Source: a virus. From it: DNA of 64,000 nucleotides. The notes beneath the pieces are model-generated. The model saw only the letters and a list, made by a program, of their open reading frames with translations. It did no database searches and was not told the origin of the DNA. Both the position numbers and the translations under genes were made by a program. Where the stretch lies: positions 1 through 64,000 of IMG/VR virus record IMGVR_UViG_3300035698_018475; one strand, 5' to 3'. Of the stretch, positions 4,055-55,621 are shown in pieces (the first letter of the stretch is position 1; each line of letters starts with the position of its first letter).

Positions 4055-4055
4055 T

Positions 4056-4994: not shown

Positions 4995-4995
4995 G

Positions 4996-5682: not shown

Positions 5683-5693
5683 AGAGTCAAGGA

Positions 5694-6509: not shown

Positions 6510-6710
6510 TTGGAGTATATTATATACATAATGGATGAACCACGGGTAATTAAAGAGTCCAAGATGGATGTTTCTCTTAGGGAGCAGAGGGAAAGACTTG
6601 AGGTTTTAATGGCAGAAGCTCTTATGATGCCAAAAGAAGTTTTTGATCCGGAAAAGATTAGTCTAAGTATATATGGTGGTATGTTGCGAATATGTTGTAT
6701 CAAGAAGTAA
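6510..6710 (+). CDS. Hypothetical protein
   Basis: ORF fills the gap between co-oriented genes; the start may be ATG 6531. Confidence 0.45.
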   Translation: MEYIIYIMDEPRVIKESKMDVSLREQRERLEVLMAEALMMPKEVFDPEKISLSIYGGMLRICCIKK

Positions 6711-26949: not shown

Positions 26950-27039
26950 GTTGCTTTTCCGTGTAATTATTATGTAGTGGGTATGCACTGTATATAGTCC
27001 CTATGTATGTGGTGTGTAGTAGAGAGAGATGAGGATTTT

Positions 27040-31731: not shown

Positions 31732-31734
31732 GTG

Positions 31735-32229
31735 ATGGGTGATGTAGATCCCGAAATACGTAAACAAGTGATACAAGCCACTCTTGGTGGTACTGCTCTC
31801 AACGAGTTAAAGAAAAGTCTAGTTAATAGGAAAGAAGTAGATTTTGCTACGAAGAATTGTTCTCCAGTGGGTACTCCCACGGCCGTCAGTTCTAGGAGAG
31901 TGGTATTACATACTAAGACTTGCTGCCCTTGTTGTAAGTCAGCTATTACAGAGGGCAGCAGGTTTTGTTCTTCCTGTGGAGAAAAGGTGGATCACCCCGT
32001 ATTAGAGAATAACATGGCTAACAGCTTGGAATCGGGACAATCCCCTCTTAGGGGAGAGCCTGAGAAGCCTAAGAACGGTTCTAGTCTGAATGCAACACTT
32101 GAGAAGGTGTTACAAAACAAAGAGGAAGTGCATGACTTATCTGAGAGTGAGAAGTCGGGGTTGAGGCAAGAGGTTCTGGCAGATATGGATACCTCCCTGG
32201 TGGGTAAAATTATGTCAGGAGTGTTCTAA
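31735..32229 (+). CDS. Hypothetical protein with double Zn ribbon
   Basis: CPCC...CSSCG. Confidence 0.6.
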   Translation: MGDVDPEIRKQVIQATLGGTALNELKKSLVNRKEVDFATKNCSPVGTPTAVSSRRVVLHTKTCCPCCKSAITEGSRFCSSCGEKVDHPVLENNMANSLESGQSPLRGEPEKPKNGSSLNATLEKVLQNKEEVHDLSESEKSGLRQEVLADMDTSLVGKIMSGVF

Positions 32230-32588
32230 TGTTTAGTAAAATACTTGAGTTTGTGAAGGATAGATCTCATTTAAGTACTGCCAAACTAAGAGTGGTTGTA
32301 CAGTGGCCGGAATCAGAAGGTAAATTATCTTCCAAGCAGGTTCGATCTTTGCTGAATAAAGAGATCAGAAAGTTGGGAGTAGTATTGGGTGATGTAGAAT
32401 GTGTCCCAACTGAATTAGTGGGGAGAGATAAATCCGTGATTGGTCCCAGAAGAGTGCATCAGTTATATTTTGATCTTCGGTATGATCCTGGGAACAAACC
32501 ATCCAAGAAAGATATAGAGCTTGCACTGGGTAATATCTTTGAACCAGTAGGTGGTAAGATTCAGAGAGTACAAACATCAGGATTTTAA
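32229..32588 (+). CDS. Hypothetical protein
   Basis: TAATG coupling; leader MFSKILEFVKD. Confidence 0.6.
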   Translation: MFSKILEFVKDRSHLSTAKLRVVVQWPESEGKLSSKQVRSLLNKEIRKLGVVLGDVECVPTELVGRDKSVIGPRRVHQLYFDLRYDPGNKPSKKDIELALGNIFEPVGGKIQRVQTSGF

Positions 32589-32599
32589 GGAGTATATAA

Positions 32600-33088
32600 A
32601 TGAGTAAGTTTCAAGAGTTACACAAGGTGGTAAAAGAATCAGTTACTTTATCAGAAGCCACAGGGGAGTGGGCATCCCAGTGGTATAAGTGGATAGATCA
32701 AGAACAAGACACTGGAGAGTTATGGGAAATCTATGATTCTATCACCGGTGCGGCAGGGAGGGAATTTCCTGAAGATACTGCTGATATGGATATCACTAAA
32801 CTTCGTGTGGCATTGAAGAAGGCTGTGAGTGGTATGGATGAGGAGGAGTTGGAAGATAAGTTTCCCGGAGAGATCGGGGCTAAAAAGGAGAAGGTTATAA
32901 CCTTATCTAAAATATTGGATTCTATCTTTAAGAGTATCTTGGAGTCCGATGTTGATGGGGTTATAGATCAGTATAATGAGTTTTTTGGGACTAATTATAC
33001 TGCACAAGATGTACAACGGGATGTTGAAAGTTTCGTAGATTATGCTGAACAGAAGGGTATAACTCCACCTTATAGTGAGGAGGGGTAA
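32600..33088 (+). CDS. Putative head-internal protein (MSKFQ leader)
   Basis: Leader MSKFQELHKVVKESVTLSE. Confidence 0.65.
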   Translation: MSKFQELHKVVKESVTLSEATGEWASQWYKWIDQEQDTGELWEIYDSITGAAGREFPEDTADMDITKLRVALKKAVSGMDEEELEDKFPGEIGAKKEKVITLSKILDSIFKSILESDVDGVIDQYNEFFGTNYTAQDVQRDVESFVDYAEQKGITPPYSEEG

Positions 33089-33091
33089 CTA

Positions 33092-33475
33092 ATGTCTGTA
33101 CAAGCTGATAAAGTCTATGCCCGATTGCAGGAAGTAAGGAAGTACTGTATACCTCAGGATGATTCCGTACTTAGTACAATACTTCGCGACATGTTTGTGG
33201 AATATCAGGCTGGGAATTACCAACGGGTGGAAGAGTGGTTAAAGTCTTTTACCACACAAGAACAACTGATGGCCCGGTTAATAGTTAAGTTGAAGGATAA
33301 AGCAGTGTATAAGACTTTGAAAGCCTTATCAGAGGGTAGGGTGGAACACACTCCTACAGCTTTGAAGGGTCTATTCAGTTTAGGCACACATATAGCGATA
33401 GAATTAGAACAAGGGAATAAAAAGTTTGGTATGCTGCTTCCCCCATTATATAATAAGATAGGAAAGCTGATTTAG
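33092..33475 (+). CDS. Hypothetical protein
   Basis: GAGGAGG RBS. Confidence 0.65.
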   Translation: MSVQADKVYARLQEVRKYCIPQDDSVLSTILRDMFVEYQAGNYQRVEEWLKSFTTQEQLMARLIVKLKDKAVYKTLKALSEGRVEHTPTALKGLFSLGTHIAIELEQGNKKFGMLLPPLYNKIGKLI

Positions 33476-33490
33476 TTAAGGAGTACACAG

Positions 33491-33847
33491 ATGAATAAGT
33501 TCCAAGGCATTCATCAAGCGGTAAAAAATGAAGTAAGTATCAAAGAGCAGGGAGGAGGGGAAGATTATGAAGATGTTATCCGGGGATCAGAAGAAGAGTT
33601 TGCAGCCAGATCTGGTGGAGAGTTCCCCGGTGAAGATGATAATACTATTAGTAAGATCATAAGTATTATCTCTAATCAGCTCAGGGATAGTACTTTCAGG
33701 CAGGATATAGAGGAGATACTGGCAGAAGATCTGGGGTTTGGTTATGAGAAAGCCGAAGGAGTGGTAGGTAAAGTACTAGAAATTGTTGTCGCCAGGATGG
33801 GTTCTAGTATGTTCCGGGAAGATATAGAGGAATTGTACCATGAATGA
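33491..33847 (+). CDS. Putative head-internal protein (MNKFQ leader)
   Basis: Leader MNKFQGIHQAVKNEVSIKE. Confidence 0.65.
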   Translation: MNKFQGIHQAVKNEVSIKEQGGGEDYEDVIRGSEEEFAARSGGEFPGEDDNTISKIISIISNQLRDSTFRQDIEEILAEDLGFGYEKAEGVVGKVLEIVVARMGSSMFREDIEELYHE

Positions 33848-40540: not shown

Positions 40541-42784
40541 ATGAAGAATAATAGTCTAATGAATCATGTGATTTCCAATAGTAGGGCTATAAATGATGAG
40601 GCTTCCCTAAGTGCAGGTATGTCTGATAGAGAGATGTTACAGGCTCATAGGGATATGCTGGGTTCCACCGCTGGGAGAGTGGGGCTTGATGCCAGCAGGA
40701 AGTCCCAATATGTAGCTTTTATGTTGGAGAGATATGAGTTGGGTACCTATGCTCCAGAGTTTGCACATGAGTGGGCCACGAGGTTTAAGCAGGGTAAAGA
40801 GTGGAGTTTCTCGGATGGTGAGAGTAAGAAAGTATTGGAGAGGTTGTATCCTGCATTGTATGAAGGTAGTAAAGTCCCAGAAGAGACATCCGACCACTAT
40901 AAGAATCTGATATATCGTATATTTAACGATATGGATCGGGATACTCTTTTACAAGTTATACAAGGCGAGGGTATTACTAGTGAATTTGAAGAACAATTAC
41001 CAGGCAAGTCCCTAGGTGGGGCCAGTGATGATGAGATAAGAGATACGTTGATAGGTGTTTGGGATGAGTTTGATGCAGATGTGTATAATAATATAAGGAA
41101 GTATACCACGGAATCTAAAAGTGACCATCAAAAGAAACTATTGGAATTGATTCAACTGGATGGTGAATTGGTGTTCAACATCCATAGAAACTACATAGGG
41201 GAAGTGGAGGAAGTCACCGATGAAACAAGAACAAGGGTGCAAGGTTTTCTGGGGGAGTCCGCCACGGATCAACAAATCAAGCAAATCTGGGAAGAGTACA
41301 ACTCCACGGGAAGTGAGGATCAGGAGCGGGGGGATGGAACACATACAGATCAAAGTGGAGAGAAAGTAGATAAAAATGGGTATCTTCTACAGATGGGTTT
41401 ATTCCATGATGAACTTAGTGCTGCTCTTTCCGAAGAAGAGTATAACATGTTATCCCAGTTAGTGGGTAAGCAGGATTCTTCAATTGATAAGATTGATTCT
41501 CCGGCTATAGATAAATGGTTGGTCGATGGTGGTCCCCTTCAAGAAGTAGAAGATTTTGTAGATTCTGAAGAGTCCCTACTTAGCTTATTAAGGAGTTTGG
41601 ATAATCCTACGGTAGAAGAACAACAGTTGACTAAATTAGTTACAAGGATTGTAAGTATATTAGTTGCTAAGGATCTAACTTCTGAGTCTAAGAAAGTAAA
41701 TGAACAAGAAGAGGGTGGTAAAGAAGATATACTTGGGGACTATATTACTCAACGAATTAGGAAGATGACTCCTGAGCAGGCGAGAGAAGTTGCAAAGAAG
41801 ATGATCTCTAGGATGGAGTCCGAGATAGAGCAGATAAAATCCGAACTTCCTCCCGCTGAAGAGTCTAAGAAAGTAAACGAACAAGGTAAAAAGGGTAAGA
41901 GGCCATGGGAAGAGCCAGAAGAAGAGGACGAAGGTCCTATTGGTTTACCTGGTCGTGATTTATCACGTGATCTATCAGATGAAGAAGAGGACGACGAAGG
42001 TCCTATTGGTTTACCTGGTCGTGATTTATCAGATGATGAGTTCGAGGAGGAACCCATGGATAAGCCTGAACCTGGGGTGGATATGGAACCTGTGGAACAA
42101 CCAGTTGAACCCCCAGAGGAAGAACTACCTATGGAAGAAGAGCCCACTATGGAGAAAGAGTATGTGGGTAAAAAGGGAGAAGAACATTACTATATGGTAC
42201 AAGGTACTTCCAATACTGGGGAAGTAAATGATTTGATTATGCAGGATGCAGAGGAAGAGAAGTTGTTCTCCGCATCTGAACAGAATCTGGATCCTACCGA
42301 TATTCCCGGGTTTATCATATCAGCCATGAAAGAACTGGATTTGGAAGAAATATCTACCTCTCTGGTGGATAGGTATATAATCCCTGCGGCCGAAGATAGA
42401 GCGAAGGAACAGGCGGAAGAGGAATTCACTGAACAAGAACCCTTGGAACTTGGAGAGGAACCGAGGGAAGATCAAGTGGAAGAAATGCCACCTGAGGGGG
42501 AAGAAGAAATGATACCACCTGAGGAAGAAGAGGAGTTTGAGCCTGAACCCAGGAGGAAGAAGAGGCATGAGGGTGTAATACCTTTCCAGGGAAAGAGTTA
42601 TGCTTATTCCATTTATGAAGGGCAGACTTCTGTTATGGTAAATATAGGTGGAAGGAACTTTACCTTCGCTTCTGGAACCATCAGTTTATATGAATCTATG
42701 GGACAGGTAAAAAATCTAATGGTAGATACCCTTAAACAGTTGTCTAGCCTGGAGTTAGGGAAGTTACGGGAGAATACAAAATAG
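40541..42784 (+). CDS. Large acidic modular prohead-core/internal protein
   Basis: Directly upstream of the protease gene; very acidic; repeated ESKKVNEQ linkers. Confidence 0.7.
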   Translation: MKNNSLMNHVISNSRAINDEASLSAGMSDREMLQAHRDMLGSTAGRVGLDASRKSQYVAFMLERYELGTYAPEFAHEWATRFKQGKEWSFSDGESKKVLERLYPALYEGSKVPEETSDHYKNLIYRIFNDMDRDTLLQVIQGEGITSEFEEQLPGKSLGGASDDEIRDTLIGVWDEFDADVYNNIRKYTTESKSDHQKKLLELIQLDGELVFNIHRNYIGEVEEVTDETRTRVQGFLGESATDQQIKQIWEEYNSTGSEDQERGDGTHTDQSGEKVDKNGYLLQMGLFHDELSAALSEEEYNMLSQLVGKQDSSIDKIDSPAIDKWLVDGGPLQEVEDFVDSEESLLSLLRSLDNPTVEEQQLTKLVTRIVSILVAKDLTSESKKVNEQEEGGKEDILGDYITQRIRKMTPEQAREVAKKMISRMESEIEQIKSELPPAEESKKVNEQGKKGKRPWEEPEEEDEGPIGLPGRDLSRDLSDEEEDDEGPIGLPGRDLSDDEFEEEPMDKPEPGVDMEPVEQPVEPPEEELPMEEEPTMEKEYVGKKGEEHYYMVQGTSNTGEVNDLIMQDAEEEKLFSASEQNLDPTDIPGFIISAMKELDLEEISTSLVDRYIIPAAEDRAKEQAEEEFTEQEPLELGEEPREDQVEEMPPEGEEEMIPPEEEEEFEPEPRRKKRHEGVIPFQGKSYAYSIYEGQTSVMVNIGGRNFTFASGTISLYESMGQVKNLMVDTLKQLSSLELGKLRENTK
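41930..42031 (+). repeat. 36-nt exact direct repeat (EGPIGLPGRDLS x2)
   Basis: GAAGGTCCTATTGGTTTACCTGGTCGTGATTTATCA at 41930 and 41996. Confidence 0.9.
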
Positions 42785-42793
42785 GAGTTTATT

Positions 42794-45700
42794 ATGAAAG
42801 TTATACCTTTTCCGAAGGATGACAGGGAAGTTGTGTTCGAGAAGTACCAGATGGTACAAATGCAAGAAGGGGAAGAGCTCCCAAGTAAGGTGTTGTGCAG
42901 AGTGGTATATCCTGTGTGCAACCTTGATCAACTTAATGCAAATAAGAGGAGGTATAGGAAGGCAGTGTGGGAACAGGTGATGGATTCCGATACTCTTAAG
43001 GAAAAGTTGGACCACCGATGTCTGTTTGGGCACGCAGAACATCCTAAGGAGTCCCAGAGTCAGTTGGAGAAAACCTCTCATGTCATAAATAGGATCTGGG
43101 TAGATGAGGATTCTAATAGGGTGTTGCAGGAAATTGATGTTCTGGACACTCCTTATGGAAGAATAGTGGATACTCTACTGCAAGCTGAATGTGGAGTTGG
43201 AGTGTCCACCAGGGCTGAGGGGGAATTGGAGGAACAGAAAGATGATGAGGGTGAAACCTTTTATGATGTGATCCCGGAATCTTATGGATATATTACTACT
43301 GATTTCACCGCCGATCCCTCAACTCCTAATCCTTATCCCATGGAAGTGCAAAGGAGAATGGTGGAATCGATCGAAAAAGACAGGAACGATCTTGATCAGG
43401 GGTTCGCCATAGCCATGTTGGAGAGTATAAAGGGTAAGAAGGCACAATCTTTATGTGAGTCCATCAAGAGTAGTAAGGTGGAAGAAGAAGAGAAACCTTT
43501 GCAGAAAGTTAAACTAGTTGAACGAAGAGGTAAATCCGATCCCACCTATGCCAAGAAAATCATGGACTTCATAGATGGGGAGTGGAAAGAGACCCGGGAG
43601 AAGGATCTCACCAAGTTGATGCAAGAGTACAGGGAGCATATTAAGGTGGCACCCAAAGAGTCAGTGAAGAACTGGCTCGGTAGATTATGGCAGACTAACG
43701 AGAAAGGTTTGGTCCCCTTTGTGTCTGAAGAGTTCGTGAGGGACTATAAATCGTTATTGGAGCAGGAGGATCCGGGAGAGTTCGATCTTGATGGGGAAAT
43801 GGCGGCAGAGGGGAATGCTGGGGCAAAACCAGGTGAGGAGGAGTTGGAGGGAGATCTGGGTGATGAGGAAGTTATAGGTGAGCCTGAGGGAGATGGGGAT
43901 ATCCCGGGAGAGCCTGGTCCGGATCTGGAAGTTCCTGGGGAAGAGATGATAGTGGGTGAAGAGTTACCTGCAGAAGGAGAACTACCACCTGGGTTTGGTG
44001 CAGAAGTATCAGTGGGAGTTATGGATATTCCCGATGTATCGGCCACAGCCCTGATGTTACCTCCCCCGATATTGGATCCTCGAACAGCGGGAGTGAGCCA
44101 GATAGCCGATAGATTTGGATTCTTGGAGTTTATGACAGATTCAGGTAATAGTGTGGTCAGTCCATATCTGCAGAGGTTGGAAAAGGAGAGGTTGGATCTA
44201 TTGGATGAGTTGTCCTACAGATATTCCAGATCTGTCAGGGAAAGTAAGAAAGGGCAAAAGATTGAGTTCCGTGTTGATGAGTCTAAACTGTTGGAAATCC
44301 AGGATGTTAGATCCTCCAAGAGGGTTATTGAGTTCCTGGAAAGGGATTGGACAGAACCCGTGGAGAAGAAGATCTCCAAAACTATCCTGGAAAATAAGGA
44401 TACTATTCTTAAAGCTCCTATGGGGGAGACCAAGGATTATCTTTCCAGGGTGTGGGAAGCACAGTCTGAAGAGTTGATAGTTGATGCTTCTGATGACTTT
44501 GTTGATGAGTTACTGGAATTGATTAACTCTGATCCAGTGGATGAAACAGAAGATATCAAACAAGTATATACCGATGCTGGATTGGATCCCCCGAAAGGTA
44601 AGGGTATTCATACCAAGAAGTTCCATCGGATGGCGACTGATATAATGAAGGGGTATAGTGATGGGGAGCCCACTGAAGAAGAGAAGGGTATAGCATACGC
44701 AACTACCATGGATAGACTGGGAAGAGATAAGTCGGTGAGGAAGAGTCACCATCAGGATAAGTCTGAGAAGATTAACATCCAGGAAAACTACTGGGGGTTA
44801 TTGGACTTCCTAACTAAGTGGGAGGAGAACAAGGGTAAAGTGCCAAAGAAGAAGAAAGTGGAGTCAAGTGCAACTAAACCCGTCAGTTGTCAGTCTGAGG
44901 GAGACATAGTCAGTGGTAGGTTGTTTGAGAAGAAGAAAGTGAATGAGCAAGAGGGAGATTTATCTATAGAAGAAATTAAAGGTTACATGAGAAAGACCAT
45001 AGCTCAGATGTCTGATCCACAGTATGAGGATGTGATAGCTTTTACAGAAGAGTGGTCTAAGATAAAGCTCCCTGATACTGATGAAGTAATGGATGCTGCA
45101 AATGAGGTTATACGAGAGTTTGATCGTCTGGTGGAGATGTGGTCAAGTGGAGAATCTGGATGGGTAGGGGATGATGATATGGAGGAATCAAAGAAAAATA
45201 AATCTTCTATTGATCTTCAAATACAAGAGGCTTCCACCCGGGCTGAGAGAGATAAAGCTTTGGAGGTTCTGGAAGATATCCAGAACCAGCTTAAGCAATT
45301 ACAGGATTCAAAAGAGGTGGAAGTCGGATTACTGTTAGCTAAGTTACAGGAGAGTTCCTCTGATATAGTCCAAAGTTATCAAGCGTTGAAGAATAAGTTG
45401 AAGGAAACCTTCGGGGAACTAAAGGTGGCAAAGGCCAGTCTTGATGCAGATCAAGAGGAACTGGCCAAGAAGGATGCTACTATAGCTACTTTGAAGGGGG
45501 ATGTTACTCAGATGAAAGCTGAGTATGGTACAGAGATAGAACAATTGGAGAACCGTCATCTTACTGAAAGAACTAAGATGTTAAAAGGTTATACACAAGC
45601 CAGATTAGGCGAAAGTTCTTATAAAGCAATTCCAGACAGAACTCGAGCACTTCTTGAGGAATCAAAAGATCTGGAAGAGGTTGAAGACCGGCTAATTGCG

Positions 45701-45865
45701 GTCCGGCAGACCCTTAGAGAGAATGCACTTCATTCTACCGGGGATATTGGGATTGATAAGATCTCTGTCACTACCATAGATAGTACCGATCCTAAGCAAG
45801 CTGCAGTCAGTAAAGGCGTTAATCTGGCCTGTGAGGGTATGTTAGGAACTAAGAAGAAAAGTTAA
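42794..45865 (+). CDS. Prohead protease (T4 gp21-like) fused to extra modules and a scaffold-like coiled coil
   Basis: N.N.RRY, LFGHAEHP, SHVI, LDTPYG..V..LL...GVSTRA.G and DFTADPS; long C-terminal coiled coil. Confidence 0.85.
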   Translation: MKVIPFPKDDREVVFEKYQMVQMQEGEELPSKVLCRVVYPVCNLDQLNANKRRYRKAVWEQVMDSDTLKEKLDHRCLFGHAEHPKESQSQLEKTSHVINRIWVDEDSNRVLQEIDVLDTPYGRIVDTLLQAECGVGVSTRAEGELEEQKDDEGETFYDVIPESYGYITTDFTADPSTPNPYPMEVQRRMVESIEKDRNDLDQGFAIAMLESIKGKKAQSLCESIKSSKVEEEEKPLQKVKLVERRGKSDPTYAKKIMDFIDGEWKETREKDLTKLMQEYREHIKVAPKESVKNWLGRLWQTNEKGLVPFVSEEFVRDYKSLLEQEDPGEFDLDGEMAAEGNAGAKPGEEELEGDLGDEEVIGEPEGDGDIPGEPGPDLEVPGEEMIVGEELPAEGELPPGFGAEVSVGVMDIPDVSATALMLPPPILDPRTAGVSQIADRFGFLEFMTDSGNSVVSPYLQRLEKERLDLLDELSYRYSRSVRESKKGQKIEFRVDESKLLEIQDVRSSKRVIEFLERDWTEPVEKKISKTILENKDTILKAPMGETKDYLSRVWEAQSEELIVDASDDFVDELLELINSDPVDETEDIKQVYTDAGLDPPKGKGIHTKKFHRMATDIMKGYSDGEPTEEEKGIAYATTMDRLGRDKSVRKSHHQDKSEKINIQENYWGLLDFLTKWEENKGKVPKKKKVESSATKPVSCQSEGDIVSGRLFEKKKVNEQEGDLSIEEIKGYMRKTIAQMSDPQYEDVIAFTEEWSKIKLPDTDEVMDAANEVIREFDRLVEMWSSGESGWVGDDDMEESKKNKSSIDLQIQEASTRAERDKALEVLEDIQNQLKQLQDSKEVEVGLLLAKLQESSSDIVQSYQALKNKLKETFGELKVAKASLDADQEELAKKDATIATLKGDVTQMKAEYGTEIEQLENRHLTERTKMLKGYTQARLGESSYKAIPDRTRALLEESKDLEEVEDRLIAVRQTLRENALHSTGDIGIDKISVTTIDSTDPKQAAVSKGVNLACEGMLGTKKKS

Positions 45866-45881
45866 GTAAGGAATATAAAAA

Positions 45882-47357
45882 ATGGAAATGCAACAGATGA
45901 TAGAGAATCGTTTGACCGCTATCACTGAGAGCCGGAAGAGGCTGATCAATGAGTGGGATCCCTATATCTCTGCGGTCAATGAATGGATGAAGAGTGAAGG
46001 TGGTGGGCAAGAACTTTCTGAGTACGATAAGCAGAACATTGCCCAGTGCCTGGAGAATGCGTTGGTTGAGACCGGGTTGAAAAGTCGATCTCGGCTCTTA
46101 CAAGAAGCTACCACCGGAGATGCCATTCAGTTCATGGCTGTACAACTTCCGGTAATTGCCGCTCTTATTCCCAGTCTTGTGCTGAATAAGGTGGCAATCG
46201 TCCAAGCCCTGGATAGGCGGCAAGGTGCAGTATTTTATCTTGACGCCCTATATGGTACCACTAAGGGTGCCATTACGGCCGGCGATACCATGATCAGTGC
46301 TCAGACCGGGCATGCAAGGACTCGGGCAGCTCAGCGGTATGCTGTTACTACGGTGGAAAATGAGACCCTGGCAGATGACACTCTGGCAGCCAATACCATT
46401 ACTGGGTCGTTGGCTTACCGGCCCATGCTGGGTACTCTGAATATCACCCACGGTTCAGAGACTATTACTGATGTGGTGAATCCGGGTCAGTTGGTTTCTA
46501 ATGTCACAAACAACCCCTGTGGTTGGGTCAAGGTGGATGGTACATTCAGTGTGACCCTGAATGCCACTCCCTCAAGTGGTGGTAATGTGTATGCCGATTA
46601 CTGTTACTACTATGACACGGCCGACGATGGTGATCCCCTGGTCCCGGAGATTGATATCCAGCTACGATCTGAGATGTTGACTGCTCAGGACTTCCCGCTG
46701 AGAGCAAACTATTCAGTGGGTGCCAGTATTGATCTTGAGAAAGCACATGGTTTAATCCTCGAGGACGAGATCGTGAAGTTCCTCGGTGGTGAAATCAAGT
46801 TCGAGGTAGATCGCTACGGGCTCGATTTGATCTTACAGGCGGCCACTGGTGCCAGTGCAGCGACTCCAACTGGTACCTGGGTGGCAGCCCCCGGAGCCGG
46901 TCAGGAATGGTTATGGAAGAAGTATGAGTTCTTGGATCGGATAGAATATGGATCCAACAACATCTTCAGCCAGACCCTCCGTGCCATGTGTAATTTCATT
47001 ATCGCCGGTAATGATGTTGCTCGAGTTATCCGGCAGATGGGTGATCACTTCAAGCCCGCCCCCGGGTTGGACAAGCAGGTGCCCACCGGACCAATCGAGT
47101 TGGGTACTCTGGATGGTCGGCTGGTCATCCAGGATCCATTCCAGACTCATGACAGGTATATCCTCGGTTATAGGGGAGACAACTACCTGTTTGCGGGTGC
47201 TGTGTATGCACCGTATATTCCCCTGTTCAGTACTCCCACATTGGTAACTGCTGATCTGATGGCTCAGAAAGGCTTTATGACCTCCGCTGGTTTTAAGATT
47301 ACCAATCCCGGGATGTACACCTATGGGGATATAGATATATCCGGTATGTCCTCCTAA
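45882..47357 (+). CDS. Major capsid protein (T4 gp23-like)
   Basis: W.PY, LEN...E, VQAL....G.VFYL, R..YS.....DL.K.HG..LE, GAVYAPYIPL, GFMTS. Confidence 0.92.
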   Translation: MEMQQMIENRLTAITESRKRLINEWDPYISAVNEWMKSEGGGQELSEYDKQNIAQCLENALVETGLKSRSRLLQEATTGDAIQFMAVQLPVIAALIPSLVLNKVAIVQALDRRQGAVFYLDALYGTTKGAITAGDTMISAQTGHARTRAAQRYAVTTVENETLADDTLAANTITGSLAYRPMLGTLNITHGSETITDVVNPGQLVSNVTNNPCGWVKVDGTFSVTLNATPSSGGNVYADYCYYYDTADDGDPLVPEIDIQLRSEMLTAQDFPLRANYSVGASIDLEKAHGLILEDEIVKFLGGEIKFEVDRYGLDLILQAATGASAATPTGTWVAAPGAGQEWLWKKYEFLDRIEYGSNNIFSQTLRAMCNFIIAGNDVARVIRQMGDHFKPAPGLDKQVPTGPIELGTLDGRLVIQDPFQTHDRYILGYRGDNYLFAGAVYAPYIPLFSTPTLVTADLMAQKGFMTSAGFKITNPGMYTYGDIDISGMSS

Positions 47358-47397
47358 AGAAGAACCTATGGAGGTAGGTTAGTGAGTGTTATGGCGT

Positions 47398-47433
47398 TAG
47401 GTGGGAGTCATTCATTATGGTGGCTCCCGCCTA
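47398..47433 (+). terminator. Hairpin downstream of the capsid gene
   Basis: TAGGTGGGAGTCA/TGGCTCCCGCCTA 13-bp stem. Confidence 0.6.
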
Positions 47434-47471
47434 TTGATAATATTGTTGTCCTATTTGGTGGAGATTAAATT

Positions 47472-47963
47472 ATGGTCTTACGTAAGAAGAAAGCAGAACC
47501 AGTGGAGAAAGTGATTCGTAGTTTACTTACTGGTGGATTAAAGACCAGTGTTAGTAGTTACTCAGTGGAGAAGGATGAAATACTGGTAGCAACTTTTGCC
47601 AGTGAAGCAGAGTACAAGCGTCTTCTCACAATACAATCTTTTGTCCCCGCCACTGAAGAGGAACTATTGGATTATGCCAATAGGATCATTCCTATAGTGG
47701 ATGAAATAGTGGATATGCATTATTTTGAACAACCTGTTGTTGTTCCAGTGGTGTCTCTTGTTCCAGAGGTGCCTCTTGTTCCAGAGGTGCCTCTTGTTCC
47801 AGGACCAACGGAAGAGGTAGTGGATGGGGATATTAAGTTTGAATCAGTGGAGAGTACTTTTGATGAGGGTGAATCCTCAGAAATAGAACCTCCCTCGGAA
47901 GATGATGATGTCCCGGATGAACCTAAGAAAAGTGTTCCTTCCCGAAGGAGAAGAAAGCCATAA
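47472..47963 (+). CDS. Hypothetical protein
   Basis: GGAG RBS; acidic C-terminus with VPEVPL repeats. Confidence 0.65.
   Translation: MVLRKKKAEPVEKVIRSLLTGGLKTSVSSYSVEKDEILVATFASEAEYKRLLTIQSFVPATEEELLDYANRIIPIVDEIVDMHYFEQPVVVPVVSLVPEVPLVPEVPLVPGPTEEVVDGDIKFESVESTFDEGESSEIEPPSEDDDVPDEPKKSVPSRRRRKP
47742..47802 (+). repeat. 18-nt tandem repeat x3.4 (VPEVPL)
   Basis: GTTCCAG(A/T)GGTG(C/T)CTCTT units. Confidence 0.9.
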
Positions 47964-47966
47964 GTT

Positions 47967-49397
47967 ATGTCCAGACTACTTAATTCATCTAGTACTTCTT
48001 TTACCGGGGTGGATCTAACGGCTTCCCTGGATGTGGAACTTGTGGCTTATACTGCTACCAAAGATGTTGTATTGGATATACGTGCAGATATTGGTTCATC
48101 CTTAGGACCATTGAATAATGCAGTGAGTACTATAACTATCTCCGCCTGGATAACCAGGACCAATGGGGAAGAAGTAGAGACTTTCAGTGAAGATCTAAGT
48201 AAAGCATCCGGGCAGACTCAACTTCCATACAATTTTTATAAGAAGCTCTTGGTTCTTCGTGGTGAAGTTATAACCATAACTGGTTATAGTACCAACGCTT
48301 TGGATACTTCTATTGGTGGAGAGGTGTATATCTTTGGTAGGAATGTAAATTACTCTAGCGTCTCTTTCACTCAAGCAGATTTAACATCTTTGGTAGAACT
48401 GGGTTCATACACAGCCACCCATGATTTTGAAGTTTATGTCAGGGTAGACCTAGGTACTTCCACTTATGTATTAAACACTGGGGTGGTAAATCTAGATCTT
48501 ATTGGGGATTTGACCAATAGTTCTGGAGTGGAGGCCATTACCTATGAAGCAACTATCAGTAAGGGTGTAGGAATAACCATGCTGATATATATGCTGGATG
48601 ATTCTGTCAAGCTCCGGGATGATGAACAATTGGCTATAAATGTTGTATCAGATAATGCATCAGATATTGCTGTCAGTGGTACCATCTATTTTGCCCTATT
48701 AAGTACCACCACCAAGAGTGCAACTTTGGATTGGTTGAAAAATGAGTTCCTCCCATTGGAATTGATAACCCCGGATGAAGCGATCTACCAGCAGATAGAT
48801 AATTCAATTCGTTATTGGAATACCCACAGTGGTCGTAAGATTAGTGCTGTGGTGGAAGCAAATAGAGGGGATTCCAGGGTTCAGGTGGATCCAGAGTTTA
48901 AGACTGTAGTGCAGGTGTGGCCCACACAGAACACTGAGTGGATCCTGAATGATCATCCCATGTGGTCCCTGTTGGGTATAACCTTATTAGATAATGTGAC
49001 TACTGATCTGATTATAATGTCGGAGGCTTTCAAGAATTATAGGCAGTATGTGGGGACTAATTTCCAATGGACTTTTGAGAGGTCCTTGGATCCCGCCGTT
49101 GGGGGTTACTTGTATTATGATAATATACCTTCCCAGAATGAAGCCTTATTTGTAATAGGTACAAAACGAATCCTAGATGGGGAGGACATAGTAGATGATT
49201 ATATCCTGGATTGGATACAATACTATGCTCTATCGTTGATAAGAATTATAGAGGGAAATGCTCAGAGGAAGGCCGGCATCATAGGGGTAGCCAATGATGG
49301 GGCCGATCAATTACGGCAGGGGATGGATGAGAAGAAGGAACTACAGCAAAGGGTAGCTATAGATGCAAGATGGGTTGCTCTTGCAAAGAGAATATAA
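47967..49397 (+). CDS. Neck/head-tail adaptor (gp13-like C-terminus) with duplicated N-terminal beta domains
   Basis: C-terminal IDNSIRYWN...WI..YALSL...IEG..RK...DG..L...G..EK.EL pattern; position after the MCP. Confidence 0.6.
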   Translation: MSRLLNSSSTSFTGVDLTASLDVELVAYTATKDVVLDIRADIGSSLGPLNNAVSTITISAWITRTNGEEVETFSEDLSKASGQTQLPYNFYKKLLVLRGEVITITGYSTNALDTSIGGEVYIFGRNVNYSSVSFTQADLTSLVELGSYTATHDFEVYVRVDLGTSTYVLNTGVVNLDLIGDLTNSSGVEAITYEATISKGVGITMLIYMLDDSVKLRDDEQLAINVVSDNASDIAVSGTIYFALLSTTTKSATLDWLKNEFLPLELITPDEAIYQQIDNSIRYWNTHSGRKISAVVEANRGDSRVQVDPEFKTVVQVWPTQNTEWILNDHPMWSLLGITLLDNVTTDLIIMSEAFKNYRQYVGTNFQWTFERSLDPAVGGYLYYDNIPSQNEALFVIGTKRILDGEDIVDDYILDWIQYYALSLIRIIEGNAQRKAGIIGVANDGADQLRQGMDEKKELQQRVAIDARWVALAKRI

Positions 49398-50209
49398 TGT
49401 TTCAAGAATTACTAACATTTGTGCAGCAAGAAGTTGAGCATGACAAGTGGGTGTGCTTCGACTTTGATGGAGTGTGTTCAAAATATGATGATAATTTTGA
49501 ACTGGACTCCTTTGGACTCCCTATTCCTGGGGTAGCTGAGTGTATAAGGAATTTAAGGGGTAGTGGTTATAAAGTAACTCTTAATACTTGTAGGACTAGG
49601 ACTCCTGCGATGGATCAGTGGTTAGAAGAGAATGGGTTTGTCTTTGATTCTATAAATGATACTTCTCATAACCCTCAGTACTCTAGTAATGCTAAACCCG
49701 CGGCTGAACTATATGTGGATGATAGGGGGTTCAGGTTTAACCAGGATGAACCGGATAAGGGTGTGGAACAGATCTATCACTTATTGGATATGAATGAATC
49801 TGTCTCGTTCCATGTTATTAGTGAGACCACTGTGGATCATGCAAAGAACGAGTTGGAGAAGGCCGGATTGTTTGATAAAGATTCTGATTATGAAGGTATG
49901 ATTGGTCAGGCCGTTATGGATCTGATGAAAGTGTTTAGTGGTCAGGGTCACTCCGGGTTCTCCGCTGGAATGACTAGAGATATTTTTAACAAGTTGTCCA
50001 ACTTTGAAACCTTGACCCCAATAACTGATGATCCTTCAGAGTGGATGGATGTGACTGAATATGGAGCAGAAGGGTCTCCAAAGATGTGGCAGAGTAAGAG
50101 AGATCCATCCTTGTTCAGTTCCGATGGGGGAAAGACTTATTATGATGTGGATAAACCGAAGAAGATCATGAAGTCTGAGACAAGTAAGAGTAAGAAAGAT
50201 GTTGCCTAA
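49397..50209 (+). CDS. HAD-family phosphatase fused to a conserved phage domain
   Basis: FDFDGV, NTCR and KP.AE.YVDDR; C-terminal GHSG.SA...LTP...WQ.KR.P..F..DGG.TYY. Confidence 0.75.
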   Translation: MFQELLTFVQQEVEHDKWVCFDFDGVCSKYDDNFELDSFGLPIPGVAECIRNLRGSGYKVTLNTCRTRTPAMDQWLEENGFVFDSINDTSHNPQYSSNAKPAAELYVDDRGFRFNQDEPDKGVEQIYHLLDMNESVSFHVISETTVDHAKNELEKAGLFDKDSDYEGMIGQAVMDLMKVFSGQGHSGFSAGMTRDIFNKLSNFETLTPITDDPSEWMDVTEYGAEGSPKMWQSKRDPSLFSSDGGKTYYDVDKPKKIMKSETSKSKKDVA

Positions 50210-51005
50210 CAGTTTATTGCGTATACCTTTGGATGAAGCAAACCTTCCTGCTATTAAAAGGAAGCAGGCATCTATAACCAGGTTATTTCCCCCGTTCCAT
50301 AAAAGAGTTAGGGCGGTTAAGAGGAATGGTGGAGTCACTCTGTTCGATACTGATCCTACTGTATGGCATTTTGAGGTAACTTCTGGGACGGAACCAGGTA
50401 CCAGTTATGTTGCTCATGTTAAATTCATGAACCTTAAAAGGTGGTTACGTAGAGCAGTAGCAGATAAGAGATTGTGGAAGAAGGGAACTAATCGTATTGA
50501 CCTAAAGAAAGTGGCTGATCTTATACTGAACAAGATAGATCTAAGAGTTTTATGTACCTGTCCGGCCTTCCAATACTACGGCCCTGCTTATATCTTAAGT
50601 CTAGGGAAGTATAAAGCCAAGTATGGTTCTCAAGAAAGACGACCTCCAGATATCAGGAATCCTAAACAGTATGGTGCTGTGTGTAAACATATGCACCTAT
50701 TATTGAAGGAACTCCCTGGTATGACCAGTAAGTTTGCTAATTTCTTAAGGGAATACTATACGGAAGATATTGAAAGATTTAGGAAGAAGGGAATTCAGCA
50801 AGCAATTAAGTTCAAGAGAGCCGGGGAGGAACTGGGTAAGCGTAAGGAAGAAGTTGAAGTTGAAACAGAAGAAGAGATGGAGTATGATATGGGGGAAGCC
50901 ACTACAGGGGATGCAATTGCTTTTGAACCATCACACTTTGGGACAAAGCCAATAGGTTCTGTCCCTGATTCTTTAACAAAGAGGAAGAAAAAGAAAAAGA
51001 AATGA
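50199..51005 (+). CDS. SWIM zinc-finger protein
   Basis: V.CTCPAF..YG ... VCKH. Confidence 0.7.
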   Translation: MLPNSLLRIPLDEANLPAIKRKQASITRLFPPFHKRVRAVKRNGGVTLFDTDPTVWHFEVTSGTEPGTSYVAHVKFMNLKRWLRRAVADKRLWKKGTNRIDLKKVADLILNKIDLRVLCTCPAFQYYGPAYILSLGKYKAKYGSQERRPPDIRNPKQYGAVCKHMHLLLKELPGMTSKFANFLREYYTEDIERFRKKGIQQAIKFKRAGEELGKRKEEVEVETEEEMEYDMGEATTGDAIAFEPSHFGTKPIGSVPDSLTKRKKKKKK

Positions 51006-51586
51006 GTGACATCATACTTAACCAGTTAGAGAAACTAATAGCTACTGAACCTTTTAAGGTCATAGATAATAATGCTATGCTGTGGAGAGATATATTTGGA
51101 GTAAGATCTGTACCTACTCCAAATACAATTGCAATCCCTGCTTTTTCCATTAGTAGGAAGAATAACCGATTAGAGACTTTGGCTAAGATGATCCAGCGGT
51201 TAGTGGATAACAGAAGGGTTAAACAAGTAAAAGGGGATATCATAGATAGGATGATAGGGGAGAAGAATACTTCTCTTATACTTTCCCATCTTAAGAATTT
51301 GAGTCACCTATATGGGATAAAAATTTGGAGTTCTATTGATTGTATAAGTGTTACTTACAGTGCAGTAATAACTTCTGATCTCCGTCCTCTTGAACAGGTG
51401 CTGATAAGTGACGGGGATATAATGGATAAGGTGCAAGAGATTGGGCAGGGTCTGGTGGTGGGGGACTATATCATACCCTCTGGGGGTGGTAATTTCGATA
51501 GTAGATTTTTCTATACCATAAAAGACGTGATGGAAGGAAGATATGATGAAGTCGATGAAGTCAGTGAAGTCGATATTGGAAGCTAA
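51002..51586 (+). CDS. Hypothetical protein
   Basis: 4-nt overlap. Confidence 0.6.
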   Translation: MSDIILNQLEKLIATEPFKVIDNNAMLWRDIFGVRSVPTPNTIAIPAFSISRKNNRLETLAKMIQRLVDNRRVKQVKGDIIDRMIGEKNTSLILSHLKNLSHLYGIKIWSSIDCISVTYSAVITSDLRPLEQVLISDGDIMDKVQEIGQGLVVGDYIIPSGGGNFDSRFFYTIKDVMEGRYDEVDEVSEVDIGS

Positions 51587-51986
51587 AGACGTTGATACCT
51601 ACAAGGCGTTAATCCAGGCATTGGGAGATTTCTCCAAGAGTCAACCATTTACCGGGGTGGACAAGCTCTTTAAGAAAGCTATTGATGATGGTAAGAAAAT
51701 ACTGCCCAAGGATAAACAGGCATTGGCCATTCTGGACCATCTTCTTCAGGGAGACTCCACTTCTTCCAGTAAGGTCCAACAGGTATTAAACACCAGGTTT
51801 GATACTCTTCCGATAGAGGTTAGACCTATTATTAAAGCCGGGGATAACAAAGAAGTGGCTTTTTGGATGGTCGGCGATAGGATGAGTGATAAGGTACAGG
51901 ATCTTATTAACTTCAGTGGTGAAGGTAAAGGTAAGTGGGTAGATAAGAATGGGAAGAAGGCAACTTTAGTTGTAAAAGATAAATGA
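51543..51986 (+). CDS. Hypothetical protein
   Basis: AAGGA RBS; leader KSILEA. Confidence 0.6.
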   Translation: MMKSMKSVKSILEAKDVDTYKALIQALGDFSKSQPFTGVDKLFKKAIDDGKKILPKDKQALAILDHLLQGDSTSSSKVQQVLNTRFDTLPIEVRPIIKAGDNKEVAFWMVGDRMSDKVQDLINFSGEGKGKWVDKNGKKATLVVKDK

Positions 51987-51987
51987 G

Positions 51988-53460
51988 GTGATTACTATGG
52001 GTGTTAATGTAACAAGTCTTTTAAGTTATATCCAGGATTCTGTCAACAGTCCCACTAATGAGGAACGGGGGGAAGGCATGGGTGTGGGTGGTCCCCGTCA
52101 GGGGGATGGTGGGATGGCTGCTTGTTATTGCCAGGAGTGTGGAGCTATACTTGAAAAGAAGAGGGGAGTTCCCTGTACTCTTGCCTATCAGAAATGTCCT
52201 GAGTGTAGTAAAGATGCTGTGGTGGGTATAGACCAACAGGAGCTTGATAGGATTAACCAAGAGAAGGAGAAGACTACTTCCAGTACTGAAGAGAGTAAAG
52301 AAGAAGTACCCTGGCACAAAGTTCCTGTAGGGAGAAGGGGAAGGACAGATTATGAGCTTCAATGTTTGGAATGTGGTCATAAGTTCCATACTCTTCCACC
52401 AAGTGAAAAATGTCCAATATGTGGATCAACTGATATTGATACCTATGTTGAGGAGAGTGTGGAGGGGAAGAAACCTGTTGTAGAAGAGTTAGGTACTCCA
52501 GAGGTAGGGGAGGAACAGGATAAAGTTCAACCCATTCCCACCGATAGAGAAGTATTTGCCTTTCAACACTGGGCTAATGGTCAGGAATTATTGAACTATG
52601 TTGAGAGGGAATTGGATAATATGGAGTTATCCAAAGAGAATGTACCAAGGGATGGTAAGATGTATGTGGAGGGGGAATCCACTTTTAAGGGGAATACTGT
52701 TCAAGTGGCTTCTGATTGGTTAGGGCAGGCACCATCAAATAAACATCACTTCATTATTTACCCAAGGTCTGAAGAAGGTAGATGGGAAGAATCTAAGGAG
52801 AATATACTACTGCAGTGTCGGGGGTGTGGGGAAGTCCTCGATGAGAAGGTGGAGAAGTGTAATTGTGGAGCCACTGAGTTTGAGGATCTACTCCCAAAAG
52901 TAAGTGAGGGGGGTTCCAAAAGTAAGGAAGAATCTATTAGAGAACAGTTTGGAGAGGAAGGTAAATTAACTCCTGTAGCCAAGGGTGTAGCAGACAAGAT
53001 GGATGCTGAGACTATAGCCAGGAATAAAAATGGTAAAGTAGTATCCGACCCGGATGATCCCCAGAAATTTATGGTAGTTGTAGAAGAAAGTGGATCTATA
53101 AATGAGCAGGAGAGACAGAACTTTACTACAGAAGTGGATGTTAACCTGACTTGGGAAGGGTATGGGGAGAGAGAAGAAGATATAGATCTTGTATCTAGGA
53201 AAGCCACTGTCAATTATGCATTGGATGTGCACTACCGTGCTTATGGTATAGGAGGTATAGTGCCTACTTTCACAGAACCAGTGGAAATCCTATACACTGA
53301 TGCCTCTGGGGAAAGAAAAGTAGAAGCAGATCTGAACGATGCTGAGATATACTGGGAAGCTGGAGAAGTGTATGCCCCCAATATGATAGGAGTAAAAGTT
53401 GATTCAACTGGTAAAGTTTTGAATACAGAAGTTTGGTTTAGTTACATAACGAAGACTTAA
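51988..53460 (+). CDS. Modular acidic protein with three Zn ribbons and EES linkers
   Basis: Three CxxC...CxxC-type pairs; EESKE, EESVE, EESIREQ and EESGSINEQ. The ATG may be 51997. Confidence 0.7.
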   Translation: MITMGVNVTSLLSYIQDSVNSPTNEERGEGMGVGGPRQGDGGMAACYCQECGAILEKKRGVPCTLAYQKCPECSKDAVVGIDQQELDRINQEKEKTTSSTEESKEEVPWHKVPVGRRGRTDYELQCLECGHKFHTLPPSEKCPICGSTDIDTYVEESVEGKKPVVEELGTPEVGEEQDKVQPIPTDREVFAFQHWANGQELLNYVERELDNMELSKENVPRDGKMYVEGESTFKGNTVQVASDWLGQAPSNKHHFIIYPRSEEGRWEESKENILLQCRGCGEVLDEKVEKCNCGATEFEDLLPKVSEGGSKSKEESIREQFGEEGKLTPVAKGVADKMDAETIARNKNGKVVSDPDDPQKFMVVVEESGSINEQERQNFTTEVDVNLTWEGYGEREEDIDLVSRKATVNYALDVHYRAYGIGGIVPTFTEPVEILYTDASGERKVEADLNDAEIYWEAGEVYAPNMIGVKVDSTGKVLNTEVWFSYITKT

Positions 53461-53472
53461 ACGACTATAGGA

Positions 53473-53508
53473 CCTCCCAGGATCTCCCCTAAGAGGGGAT
53501 TTTGGGGG
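53473..53508 (+). terminator. 36-nt hairpin element, copy 2
   Basis: CCTCCCAGGATCTCCCC-TAAG-AGGGGATTTTGGGGG. Confidence 0.55.
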
Positions 53509-53533
53509 ATATGGTTTGTGGGGTTAGATATAT

Positions 53534-55621
53534 ATGTTAGATCTTGAATCAAGGCATTTATGGATCAAAACTGATGGTACTACCTGGGATGCACCAGAAG
53601 GGCATGACCAATGGGCTTACAGGAAGATGAGGGGCTTCACTGGGAAAGAACCTGTATCAGATCCATCAGAGTTATGGCAGAAACTGACTGGGGATGTTAA
53701 GGTAAGTATTTCTGGGAATAGTATAGGGTTTGCATTCCATCGGGGAATTACCAGGAATCAAATAGATACTCTTAGATATATGGCAGAAGATTATACTACT
53801 ATTGGTTATGAGATATTTCCCTCTGAGGGTAATCCTATACAGACCCATGAGGAGATGCCCATAGGATTAACTTCTATGATGGGGGATCTTAGACAGGCAG
53901 GTATGTTGAAAGAAGCAACAGAGTACCCAGAATGGGGGCAGTATTGGATATATCCAAATGGAAGAGTAGAGGAAGTAGAAGGACATCAAGTAAGTGCTGG
54001 GAAACATTTTGGAATTAAACGACCTGCTTATAGTGCGGTGTACAGATTTATGAAGAAAAAGAAACTTATACGTGCTGTCACTTATGACTATACAGAAGTA
54101 GTTGTATTTGAATCTGTAATTAAACCTACTTCTTCTCAAATGAGAACCATCAGAAAGATGATGAGAGGAGCAAAAGAGGTACAGTTTGAAGTAACAAAGA
54201 AGATAGGTAGAACATATGAAACGGTATTTACAACAGAGGAACTTCATGAATTCTACAACTATAATTATGGTAAGGAGATAGATGAATCTCTTACGGAAAC
54301 TGTTAATAAGCAAGGATTACAACGTTTACTAAGGGTATATCAAGCACAGGAAAGAGGGGAAGATCCTGATTCTCAAGATCTTTATCATTCTCTAGTGATG
54401 ATGAGGGGGTACTATTCTGAATTCCTCGATTGGTACAAGAAGTATACGAGAGAGAAGTTACCTAAGTCAGCGAAGTTGGCAAGAGAAGATTATCGTAAAA
54501 GATTGAAAGAGATTGAAGCTGTTTTGGGGTCTGAAGAACTTAGATATAAAAGATTAGTAGTTTTAGATACTGCTATAAACCAGTGGCATGTAGATTTTCC
54601 CGTTATCTCTCATTTGGGGATGGAGGAAGGTGAAGATGATTTTGAATTGGAAAATCTTGCACATGATATTGCAATTATTCTTCGTAAGTTAGGAAGATTA
54701 CCAAAGAAGAGTCCTTATGTTACAGAATCTCTAATAGACTTCCCAGAGCAAGGGTTAGACCCTTCTATATGGGATTCTTATGTGAGTGGTTTACATATAT
54801 TAAAACCAGAGGTAAAGAGAAAGATTTTTCTAACTCTTCAACAATATCCTGGGTTTAGCCTATTGTCCATCCCTGGAGCTGATTATCATATAACTGGGTC
54901 GATGGGTACTAATCAGTATCAGGAAGATACAGATATAGATATTCATATAGTCCTCCCAGAGAGTTCTGAATATGCTGATAAGGAAATTCAGAGGCAGGTA
55001 TTTAAGTGGTTCAAAGAGTACAGAGATGTGATTGATGGTTATGTCAATCAGCATCCAATAGAAGTATACCTCCAGATAAATCCTTATCAGGAATACCTTT
55101 CCGATGCGGTATATGATATATTGAACCAAGAGTGGAAGAAAGGACCTTCCGTGGTACCCATGGATTTTGATCCATACGAAGAATATGTGGATATCTTGGA
55201 TGATGTGAATCAGGAAGCAGTTGCCGCAGATATACTCCTCGGAGAGTTGAAAAGGGATGTAATAGATTATGATACTATTAGACTTGCAATCAAAAGGAAT
55301 TTACCCACAGAGGTAAAGCAAAAGTTACTGACTCGTTTGCAGTCCCATCTGGAAGAGGTTGAGCAAGATATAGAAGAGTTGTATAAATTGAGGGGAGAGT
55401 GGGTACAGGATAGGAATCTGGCTTCTCAACCCACCAGTTTGGAACAGGCATTGGGTGATGTTGAGATGTCCAAGAGTTGGCGAGATAAAAATGCTATTTT
55501 CAAGTTTTTGAATCGTTATAATTATTTGAAACTTATTAGTGATTTGGCTAAAATGATAGAGGATGAAGTGGTAACTGATAGTGAGATGAATATCATTGGG
55601 GGTATGATAGGAATTGGGTAA
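53534..55621 (+). CDS. Multidomain protein with C-terminal Pol-beta-type nucleotidyltransferase
   Basis: ITGSMGT.QY...TDIDIHI and HPIEVY; two tandem WI.P/TDG..H modules at the N-terminus. Confidence 0.75.
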   Translation: MLDLESRHLWIKTDGTTWDAPEGHDQWAYRKMRGFTGKEPVSDPSELWQKLTGDVKVSISGNSIGFAFHRGITRNQIDTLRYMAEDYTTIGYEIFPSEGNPIQTHEEMPIGLTSMMGDLRQAGMLKEATEYPEWGQYWIYPNGRVEEVEGHQVSAGKHFGIKRPAYSAVYRFMKKKKLIRAVTYDYTEVVVFESVIKPTSSQMRTIRKMMRGAKEVQFEVTKKIGRTYETVFTTEELHEFYNYNYGKEIDESLTETVNKQGLQRLLRVYQAQERGEDPDSQDLYHSLVMMRGYYSEFLDWYKKYTREKLPKSAKLAREDYRKRLKEIEAVLGSEELRYKRLVVLDTAINQWHVDFPVISHLGMEEGEDDFELENLAHDIAIILRKLGRLPKKSPYVTESLIDFPEQGLDPSIWDSYVSGLHILKPEVKRKIFLTLQQYPGFSLLSIPGADYHITGSMGTNQYQEDTDIDIHIVLPESSEYADKEIQRQVFKWFKEYRDVIDGYVNQHPIEVYLQINPYQEYLSDAVYDILNQEWKKGPSVVPMDFDPYEEYVDILDDVNQEAVAADILLGELKRDVIDYDTIRLAIKRNLPTEVKQKLLTRLQSHLEEVEQDIEELYKLRGEWVQDRNLASQPTSLEQALGDVEMSKSWRDKNAIFKFLNRYNYLKLISDLAKMIEDEVVTDSEMNIIGGMIGIG

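Follow-up and report, generated by a model that had tools for sequence, protein, structure and literature searches.

Gene organization of the head region

We analyzed the first 64 kb (64,000 nt; hereafter, the window) of the IMG/VR record IMGVR_UViG_3300035698_018475, a 124,322-bp uncultured phage record with terminal repeats, and focused on head genes between positions 40541 and 55621 whose products carry a recurrent short peptide motif. Nearly every gene in the window lies on the plus strand, as do all genes described in this section. They include g40526, an acidic protein of ~747 aa counted from the probable ATG at 40541 (40541-42784; the ORF caller placed the start at TTG 40526, which gives 752 aa), directly upstream of the protease; a 1023-aa fusion of a protease, a variable insert and a putative scaffold (42794-45865; PF03420, PHROG 207); a gp23-type major capsid protein (MCP; 45882-47357); g51988 (51988-53460; probable start ATG 51997); and g53534 (53534-55621). 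A preliminary description of this DNA had proposed that these genes encode strings of small domains which the prohead protease releases inside the capsid at [ILV]xE sites, and all the peptide strings that it quoted were located in the window at the positions it gave.

Megablast of the region against cultured phages returned no DNA-level match, and the nearest cultured MCPs, those of Bacillus SP-15, Listeria LIS04, Bacillus HSE3 and Maribacter Colly/Molly, are 24-31% identical. The clade was sampled through two MCP scans of IMG/VR, which yielded 13 related contigs with MCPs 41-82% identical. Complete genomes were compared for the window phage (G0), G1 (126.5 kb) and G5 (215 kb), and four window proteins were tested, namely g40526, the protease fusion, g51988 and g53534.

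An extended motif is specific to head modules

The frequency of [ILV]xE, which had been proposed as the statistical basis of the sites, did not hold up: the four proteins contain 82 such tripeptides against 76.4 expected by shuffling (P=0.25). The generic tripeptide thus occurs at its expected frequency, consistent with motifs that arise by chance in acidic, Lys-/Glu-rich low-complexity proteins. However, the extended form E[SK][KR]x0-2[ILVM]xE occurs six times in the same proteins against 0.59 expected, a count reached by 0 of 2000 shuffles. In the head modules of 14 phages (100,113 aa), ES[KR]x0-1[ILVM]xE was found 41 times against 3.6 ± 1.9 expected from composition-preserving shuffles, a more than tenfold excess in which most counts stem from relatives whose linkers do not align with the window. 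In 109,981 non-head aa from the three complete genomes, the same pattern was found 0 times against 2.0 expected. The suggested enrichment of motifs in head over non-head genes therefore holds for the extended motif, for which chance is refuted; we consider it extremely unlikely as an explanation of the motifs.

All 17 matches in the three complete genomes fell inside head modules, and a search with the back-translated DNA pattern of the motif found nothing outside the head module in the G0, G1 and G5 records. The forms in relatives are ESKVNE, ESKINE, ESRVNE, ESKLNE, ESKKVNE, ESRVQE and similar. Counting back from the last Glu as P1, this residue is Glu rather than Asp in a ratio of 41:5, and of 15:0 where Asn precedes; the first residue is Glu rather than Asp at 41:3, the second is Ser rather than Thr at 41:5, and P2 is Asn in 13 of the 39 matches in relatives, though Asn lay outside the search pattern. 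Enrichment, confinement to head genes and selection at each position indicate that the extended motif is a genuine short linear motif specific to head modules.

Such specificity would also suit an uncut docking or targeting peptide that brings each module into the prohead, for example by binding to the portal, the scaffold or the inside of the capsid, and leaves the chains intact. The conserved E-S-K at P6-P4 is required by no known gp21-type rule, and targeting and processing in T4 rely on different leader residues (PMC9026906), both of which favor docking. However, the motif agrees exactly with the protease rule in its C-terminal half and shows strong selection for Glu over Asp, the N-terminal leaders described below end in the same hydrophobic-x-Glu, and docking does not need an exact position at every module border. 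We regard an uncut docking peptide as unlikely.

Motif sites lie at module borders

Protein g40526 occupies the position of a prohead core protein and had no Pfam or PHROG match. Its ~110-aa conserved domain (aa ~540-650) was found in the protease-upstream gene of eight relatives, in versions of 427-2173 aa; a Protein Atlas search with this domain gave no lead. The first motif, ESKKVLE (aa 99-105; 40820-40840), lies near the end of the conserved N-terminal domain and reads DSKKVLE in G1. ESKKVNEQ then occurs twice. Copy 1 (aa 387; 41684-41707) opens a 59-aa cassette (nt 41684-41860), composed of ESKKVNEQ and a 51-residue helical module, which is absent from the G1 ortholog. Copy 2 (aa 446; 41861-41884) closes the inserted module, and its G1 counterpart is NESKVNEQ; this surviving site forms an island conserved between G0 and G1 amid unalignable sequence. 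At the DNA level, the two copies are identical in 23 of 24 bases, with unrelated flanks.

The middle of g40526 is of low complexity and acidic, resembling the acidic internal peptides derived from T4 core proteins, and the window at 41900-42010 (aa ~460-500) holds a tandem EDEGPIGLPGRDLS copy within a strongly acidic stretch rich in Pro.

In the protease fusion, EKKKVNEQ (aa 712-719; 44927-44950; EEKKVNEE in G1) is a conserved island at the border between a block conserved in G1 and one divergent in G1. The preliminary description had noted a similar module behind the motif in both g40526 and the fusion; the similarity was recovered, but it is weak (16/37 identical, E=6e-4).

In relatives, modules of ~60-100 aa are strung between ESK[VI]NE sites. 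L007_3465 (1263 aa) contains four motif sites at intervals of 69-98 aa that hold zinc-ribbon modules, and L010_29 is at least 2173 aa long. In the L007 protein (3465-7256), a ~100-aa zinc-ribbon insert (aa ~735-845) bracketed by ESRVNE and ESKIHE lies inside the domain common with g40526, at a point between ...GTSNTGE and VNDLIM... of G0. Apparently, a motif-flanked cassette can interrupt a folded domain.

Protein g51988 consists of three zinc-ribbon modules, a ~45-aa mini-domain and a conserved C-terminal domain. EESIREQ (aa 314; 52927-52947) lies directly upstream of the mini-domain, and EESGSINEQ (aa 366; 53083-53109; EESRLNEE in the G1 ortholog) separates it from the C-terminal domain. The mini-domain (aa 321-365) was found in four other proteins, including the L002 protease fusion, and [ILA]xEQ precedes it each time. 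Over the separate modules in general, Pfam and PHROG scans identified zinc ribbons and NTP_transf_2 only. The mini-domain (window 52948-53082) follows the pattern xAKGxxxxxDAExxAxxKxGxVxxDPxDPxKFxVxV and has five different protein contexts across the clade; by inspection, it is reminiscent of half of a SPOR/RNP-like beta-alpha-beta-beta unit, with no family match.

Homology divides g53534 into modules A (7-130), B (136-250), C (250-398) and D (399-695), of which D is a Pol-beta-type nucleotidyltransferase (PF01909, 6e-5). With a slash marking the predicted cut, the A/B border carries MLKE127/A (aa 124-128; 53903-53917), the B/C border DESLTE (aa 250-255; 54281-54298) and the C/D border YVTE398/S399 (54716-54730). 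At the A/B border, G1 has LLHE/S followed by a 60-aa insert that ends in GINE/Q, P0002 has VDE/S and P0006 has LRE/S. The three sites named earlier as separating the domains of g53534 all fall on homology-defined borders, although the one given as TESLID (397-402) is better read as V-T-E398/S399.

G1, the nearest relative, has an ortholog of 603 aa with modules A, B and D; module C, bracketed in G0 by DESL...TESL, is wholly absent from it. A word-based search with the N-terminal 400 aa among near-length proteins found nothing, whereas an exhaustive HMMER search with aa 1-396 found relatives: module C (aa ~250-396) occurs as separate proteins of 150-180 aa and in several fusions, and module A alone, or A plus B, is present in other chains. 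The stand-alone C proteins start with leaders such as MFEQLLEKCLESLKE, MIELLEKILQLNE and MKQLIERLLKIQE; for modules C and D alike, such leaders measure 5-28 aa and end in hydrophobic-x-Glu. For domain D, 62 homologs with an SxIDFP start were collected, in which the preceding residue is Glu (58) or Asp (4) and P3 is L/V/M/I in 56. Forty-eight of them are stand-alone proteins with a 5-28-aa leader ending in hydrophobic-x-E (e.g., MFDLLEKMLE/SSIDFP), and 14 are fusions that keep the same site internally.

An AlphaFold model of C+D (72 sequences, mean pLDDT 88) bore out the proposed domain boundary, placing the C/D site in a linker between two confident domains; the only long low-confidence stretch of the model (pLDDT <50) is residues 142-149, which correspond to aa 391-398, KKSPYVTE. 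A single-sequence AlphaFold prediction of g53534 reached a pLDDT of 36.6 and was not used. The homology dissection and the model together indicate that the three named sites lie on true module borders. Across the four proteins, 9 of 9 module junctions carry hydrophobic-x-Glu, the choice of junctions being partly informed by the motif.

Foldseek and VIA searches with the C+D model returned no significant match, giving weak nucleotidyltransferase rows and generic helical bundles. Modules A and B compared as tandem repeats were in register, but the similarity was not significant (E=0.13), and this relation was rejected. Module C is a helical bundle that carries NQWHxDxPV and RLGRLPxxSPY. In metagenomic phage proteins (P0003-P0012) it frequently adjoins module D or is fused to it; the pair may make up a single bipartite enzyme or combine an enzyme with a partner. 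The metagenomic protein P0002 (755 aa) has a leader, a hydrophobic segment and a region resembling, by eye, a lytic transglycosylase, a likeness not confirmed by family search, followed by A-B-D joined by VDE/S. Lytic transglycosylases are typical of ejected proteins, and a cell-wall-cutting domain in this chain would fit an ejected protein.

Inserts flanked by two copies of the motif, namely ESKKVNEQ...ESKKVNEQ in g40526 with its near-identical DNA, ESL...ESL around module C and ESRVNE...ESKIHE around the L007 insert, are also what would be left if the motif were mainly a scar or joint of module shuffling at shared linker DNA, with no protein function. Yet phages with MCPs of just 41-55% identity encode the motif in different codons while preserving its amino acids, selection acts at each position, and non-head genes also recombine but carry no motif. 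A joint with no protein function is therefore, in our judgment, quite improbable. Recombination is nevertheless compatible with site function, since a functional site can double as a joint, and the flanking repeats around the inserts suggest that the site also serves for module exchange.

Protease-scaffold fusion and capsid protein

The fusion belongs to the S77 family (PF03420 Peptidase_S77, 33.8 bits against a cut-off of 27) and matches PHROG 207, head maturation protease (2.5e-25). Its gp21-type protease domain (42794-43468) ends at SLCE222/SIK, and L-x-E-[SNK]-I-K is kept at this end in most relatives. A profile of 16 homologs matched T4 gp21 (5JBL) at E=3.8e-14; phmmer with the whole fusion against the PDB gave no match, so that 5JBL was reached by profile only. 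His83 (AEHP; nt 43040-43042) and Ser138 (GVSTRA; nt 43205-43207) are invariant among the 16 aligned homologs, and we take them to be the catalytic pair known from gp21.

Among 13 relatives, whose fusions measure 533-1545 aa, conservation is limited to aa ~1-230 and the last ~200 aa, the latter aligning with all relatives; the variable modules in the fusion gene of this clade amount to 70-1100 aa. DLQIQE812/A (IQE/A in G0, IKE/A in G1) and the conserved coiled-coil C-terminal domain that follows it span 45212-45865; we read this domain as a probable scaffold. The protease gene and the MCP gene have no separate scaffold gene between them, and cultured relatives annotate the equivalent fusion as protease plus scaffold.

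The MCP matched PF07068 (1.2e-36) and T4 gp23 structures (8e-17), and carries a conserved hydrophobic-x-Glu ~60-75 residues from its N-terminus, as a gp23-type protein would. The predicted maturation site LLQE75/A, described previously for this protein, is present (46095-46109), and E75 is invariant in the window and its 13 clade relatives, with L/I/V at P3. The MCPs of LIS04 (ALLE/TT) and Colly_1 (AIME/AT) have a site of the same form, L/I-x-E/[AT]T. In the HMMER alignment, T4 LTE65/A pairs weakly with ALVE63/T and not with E75. Position 63 is Asp in two relatives; E63 was therefore rejected as the main site and E75 preferred.

The C-terminus of a SWIM-type protein (50199-51005) reads MGE/ATTGDAIAF (50889-50918), a copy of the predicted mature MCP N-terminus, LLQE/ATTGDAIQF. 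The copy also occurs in G1 (VEE/TTTGDAIAF) and not in 11 other relatives, whose MCP N-termini differ. Co-variation of the two termini was thus confined to G0 and G1 and was rejected for the other relatives.

Unrelated proteins share N-terminal leaders

Unrelated proteins share short N-terminal leaders that end in a site, the types found in G0 being MSKFQELHKVVKE and MFQELL. In G5, 21 proteins of 107-1263 aa start with MSLEKDITxIKxLVE[AQ] (L023-L033, about 124-155 kb), among them the core protein encoded ahead of the protease and the product of the gene that follows the MCP gene. To judge from these starts, the G5 set looks like a much enlarged family of capsid-targeting sequences (CTS).

In the window, the protein at 49397-50209 (probable start ATG 49397) has the CTS-like leader MFQELLTFVQQE and a HAD-like N-terminal half, and strongly matches PF25185, 'Type I Thoeris inhibitor Tad3' (1.5e-34). 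It is a candidate for a packaged counter-defence factor.

Putative processing of modular head cargo

In T4, gp21 cuts behind Glu in L/I-x-E, breaks gp22, gp67 and gp68 of the core into pieces and removes propeptides of 7-65 residues; Asp at the cleavage position (P1) is reported to block processing, and a 10-residue capsid-targeting sequence suffices for protein loading (PMC9026906). The proteases of phiKZ and SPN3US cut after S/A/G-x-E and A-x-E (PMC9026906, PMC10052503), with several sites within some propeptides (PMC10052503). The linker peptide in the window fits this rule of head-maturation proteases, which makes it probable that the modules enter the capsid and are separated there by cleavage. 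We consider it reasonably likely that the motifs are prohead-protease sites in head-internal polyproteins, that is, that the phage has a T4-type prohead core with multi-module cargo chains. What stands of the original interpretation is the separable modules, the motifs at their borders, the gp21-type protease with its catalytic residues and the conserved MCP site, to which the specificity for head modules is added; its statistical basis in [ILV]xE was lost.

We infer cleavage, packaging and ejection in the following form. The gp21-type serine protease, joined via the variable insert to the coiled-coil scaffold domain, would co-assemble with the gp23-type capsid protein. The proteins g40526, g51988 and g53534 would be taken into the prohead as chains of small folded modules, and some chains would enter via short N-terminal leaders like the T4 capsid-targeting sequence. 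After shell closure, the protease would cut behind Glu at hydrophobic-x-Glu sites, preferably those of the form E-S-K/R-(K)-V/I/L-N-E. Such cuts would trim the MCP at Glu75, separate the protease from the scaffold, fragment the scaffold along with the acidic linkers and set the modules free within the head; some of these modules, e.g., the nucleotidyltransferase, may leave with the DNA. The system would then probably be a larger, more modular version of T4 processing.

Several points weigh against processing by the protease. Given that the four proteins hold no excess of [ILV]xE, most copies of this tripeptide cannot be sites. The window had already been inspected when the extended motif was drawn up, and the motif was therefore tested on the relatives. 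RESKKGQKIE and DESKLLE in the protease fusion are not kept in G1, and g53534 is without the extended motif, having simple hydrophobic-x-Glu sites only. The Glu that precedes SxIDFP could serve the structure of domain D and have no part in cleavage. Finally, SPN3US cleavages nearly always strip N-terminal propeptides and do not separate modules (PMC10052503).

If the cuts are real, one short peptide would reveal the capsid-delivered proteins of an uncultured clade from sequence, and head cargo would evolve as swappable modules inside protease-scaffold and core genes. The motif would also provide a concrete six-residue substrate of a gp21-type protease, known rules spanning three residues only, and would suggest how foreign proteins might be loaded into capsids. 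The nucleotidyltransferase and the other packaged modules would be candidates for early host take-over or counter-defence factors.

A more tentative extension is that cassettes flanked by protease sites are protein-level hitch-hikers, insertable into any carrier that resides in the prohead and then excised by the maturation protease. The carrier, which could be the protease-scaffold fusion, the core protein or a loop inside a folded domain as in L007, would tolerate the insertion because the maturation protease would excise the cassette, and the site-coding DNA would double as a recombination joint. This is possible rather than likely; if true, it would give T4-type phages a general way to evolve and exchange capsid-delivered effectors, with the nucleotidyltransferase, the zinc-ribbon modules and the Tad3-like domain as candidates.

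Other features of the head module

The head module also contains a portal gene with an HNH-type insert (27007-29643), small proteins with common leaders (31066-33847) and, downstream of the head genes, a tail sheath gene (58669). In the 878-aa portal protein, the HNH-endonuclease-like insert spans aa ~410-550, and the 603-aa L003 portal is without it; the insert may be an intein or a homing insertion.

Comparison with known systems

The closest parallel is the T4 prohead core (gp21, gp22, gp67/gp68, IPI-III and Alt; PMC9026906). Both systems have a gp23-type MCP and a gp21-type (S77) protease, and the rule of Glu at P1 with a hydrophobic P3, the MCP propeptide site at about residue 65-75, predicted here, and the short N-terminal leaders ending in a site are alike. 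T4 itself cuts its core proteins into several pieces and packages enzymes (Alt). However, the window phage has protease and scaffold in one gene, with inserted modules of up to ~1100 aa, and its cargo consists of multi-module chains with internal sites, whereas T4 cargo consists of single proteins with one leader each. The motif in the window is longer, E-S-K/R-(K)-V/I/L-N-E, and sequence identity is low, the MCP matching at 8e-17 and the protease by profile only.

In phiKZ, 201phi2-1 and SPN3US (gp175/gp245; PMC10052503, PMC5694885, PMC9026906), a diverged gp21 homolog likewise processes many head proteins after Glu, and a large mass of protein inside the head is thought to be ejected. These phages differ in that P3 is a small residue there and hydrophobic in the window phage, in that N-terminal propeptides are removed and unrelated modules are not separated, and in that the protease is not fused to an insert-bearing scaffold. 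At 124 kb, moreover, the window genome is not that of a jumbo phage.

Among cultured phages, Listeria phage LIS04 and Bacillus SP-15 (Thornevirus) have a protease-scaffold fusion as a peptidase of 559 aa, and Maribacter phage Colly_1 has a 435-aa 'prohead core scaffolding protein and protease'. As in the window, the fusion lies directly before a gp23-type MCP, and the coiled-coil C-terminal part is common to both. In LIS04 and Colly_1, by contrast with the window phage, protease and scaffold adjoin without an insert, and the head region lacks ES[KR]-hydrophobic-x-E. P2 gpO and herpesvirus UL26 are also protease-scaffold fusions. The bare fusion in LIS04 and Colly_1 indicates that the fusion as such was already known, and that the inserts and the long motif belong to the uncultured clade.

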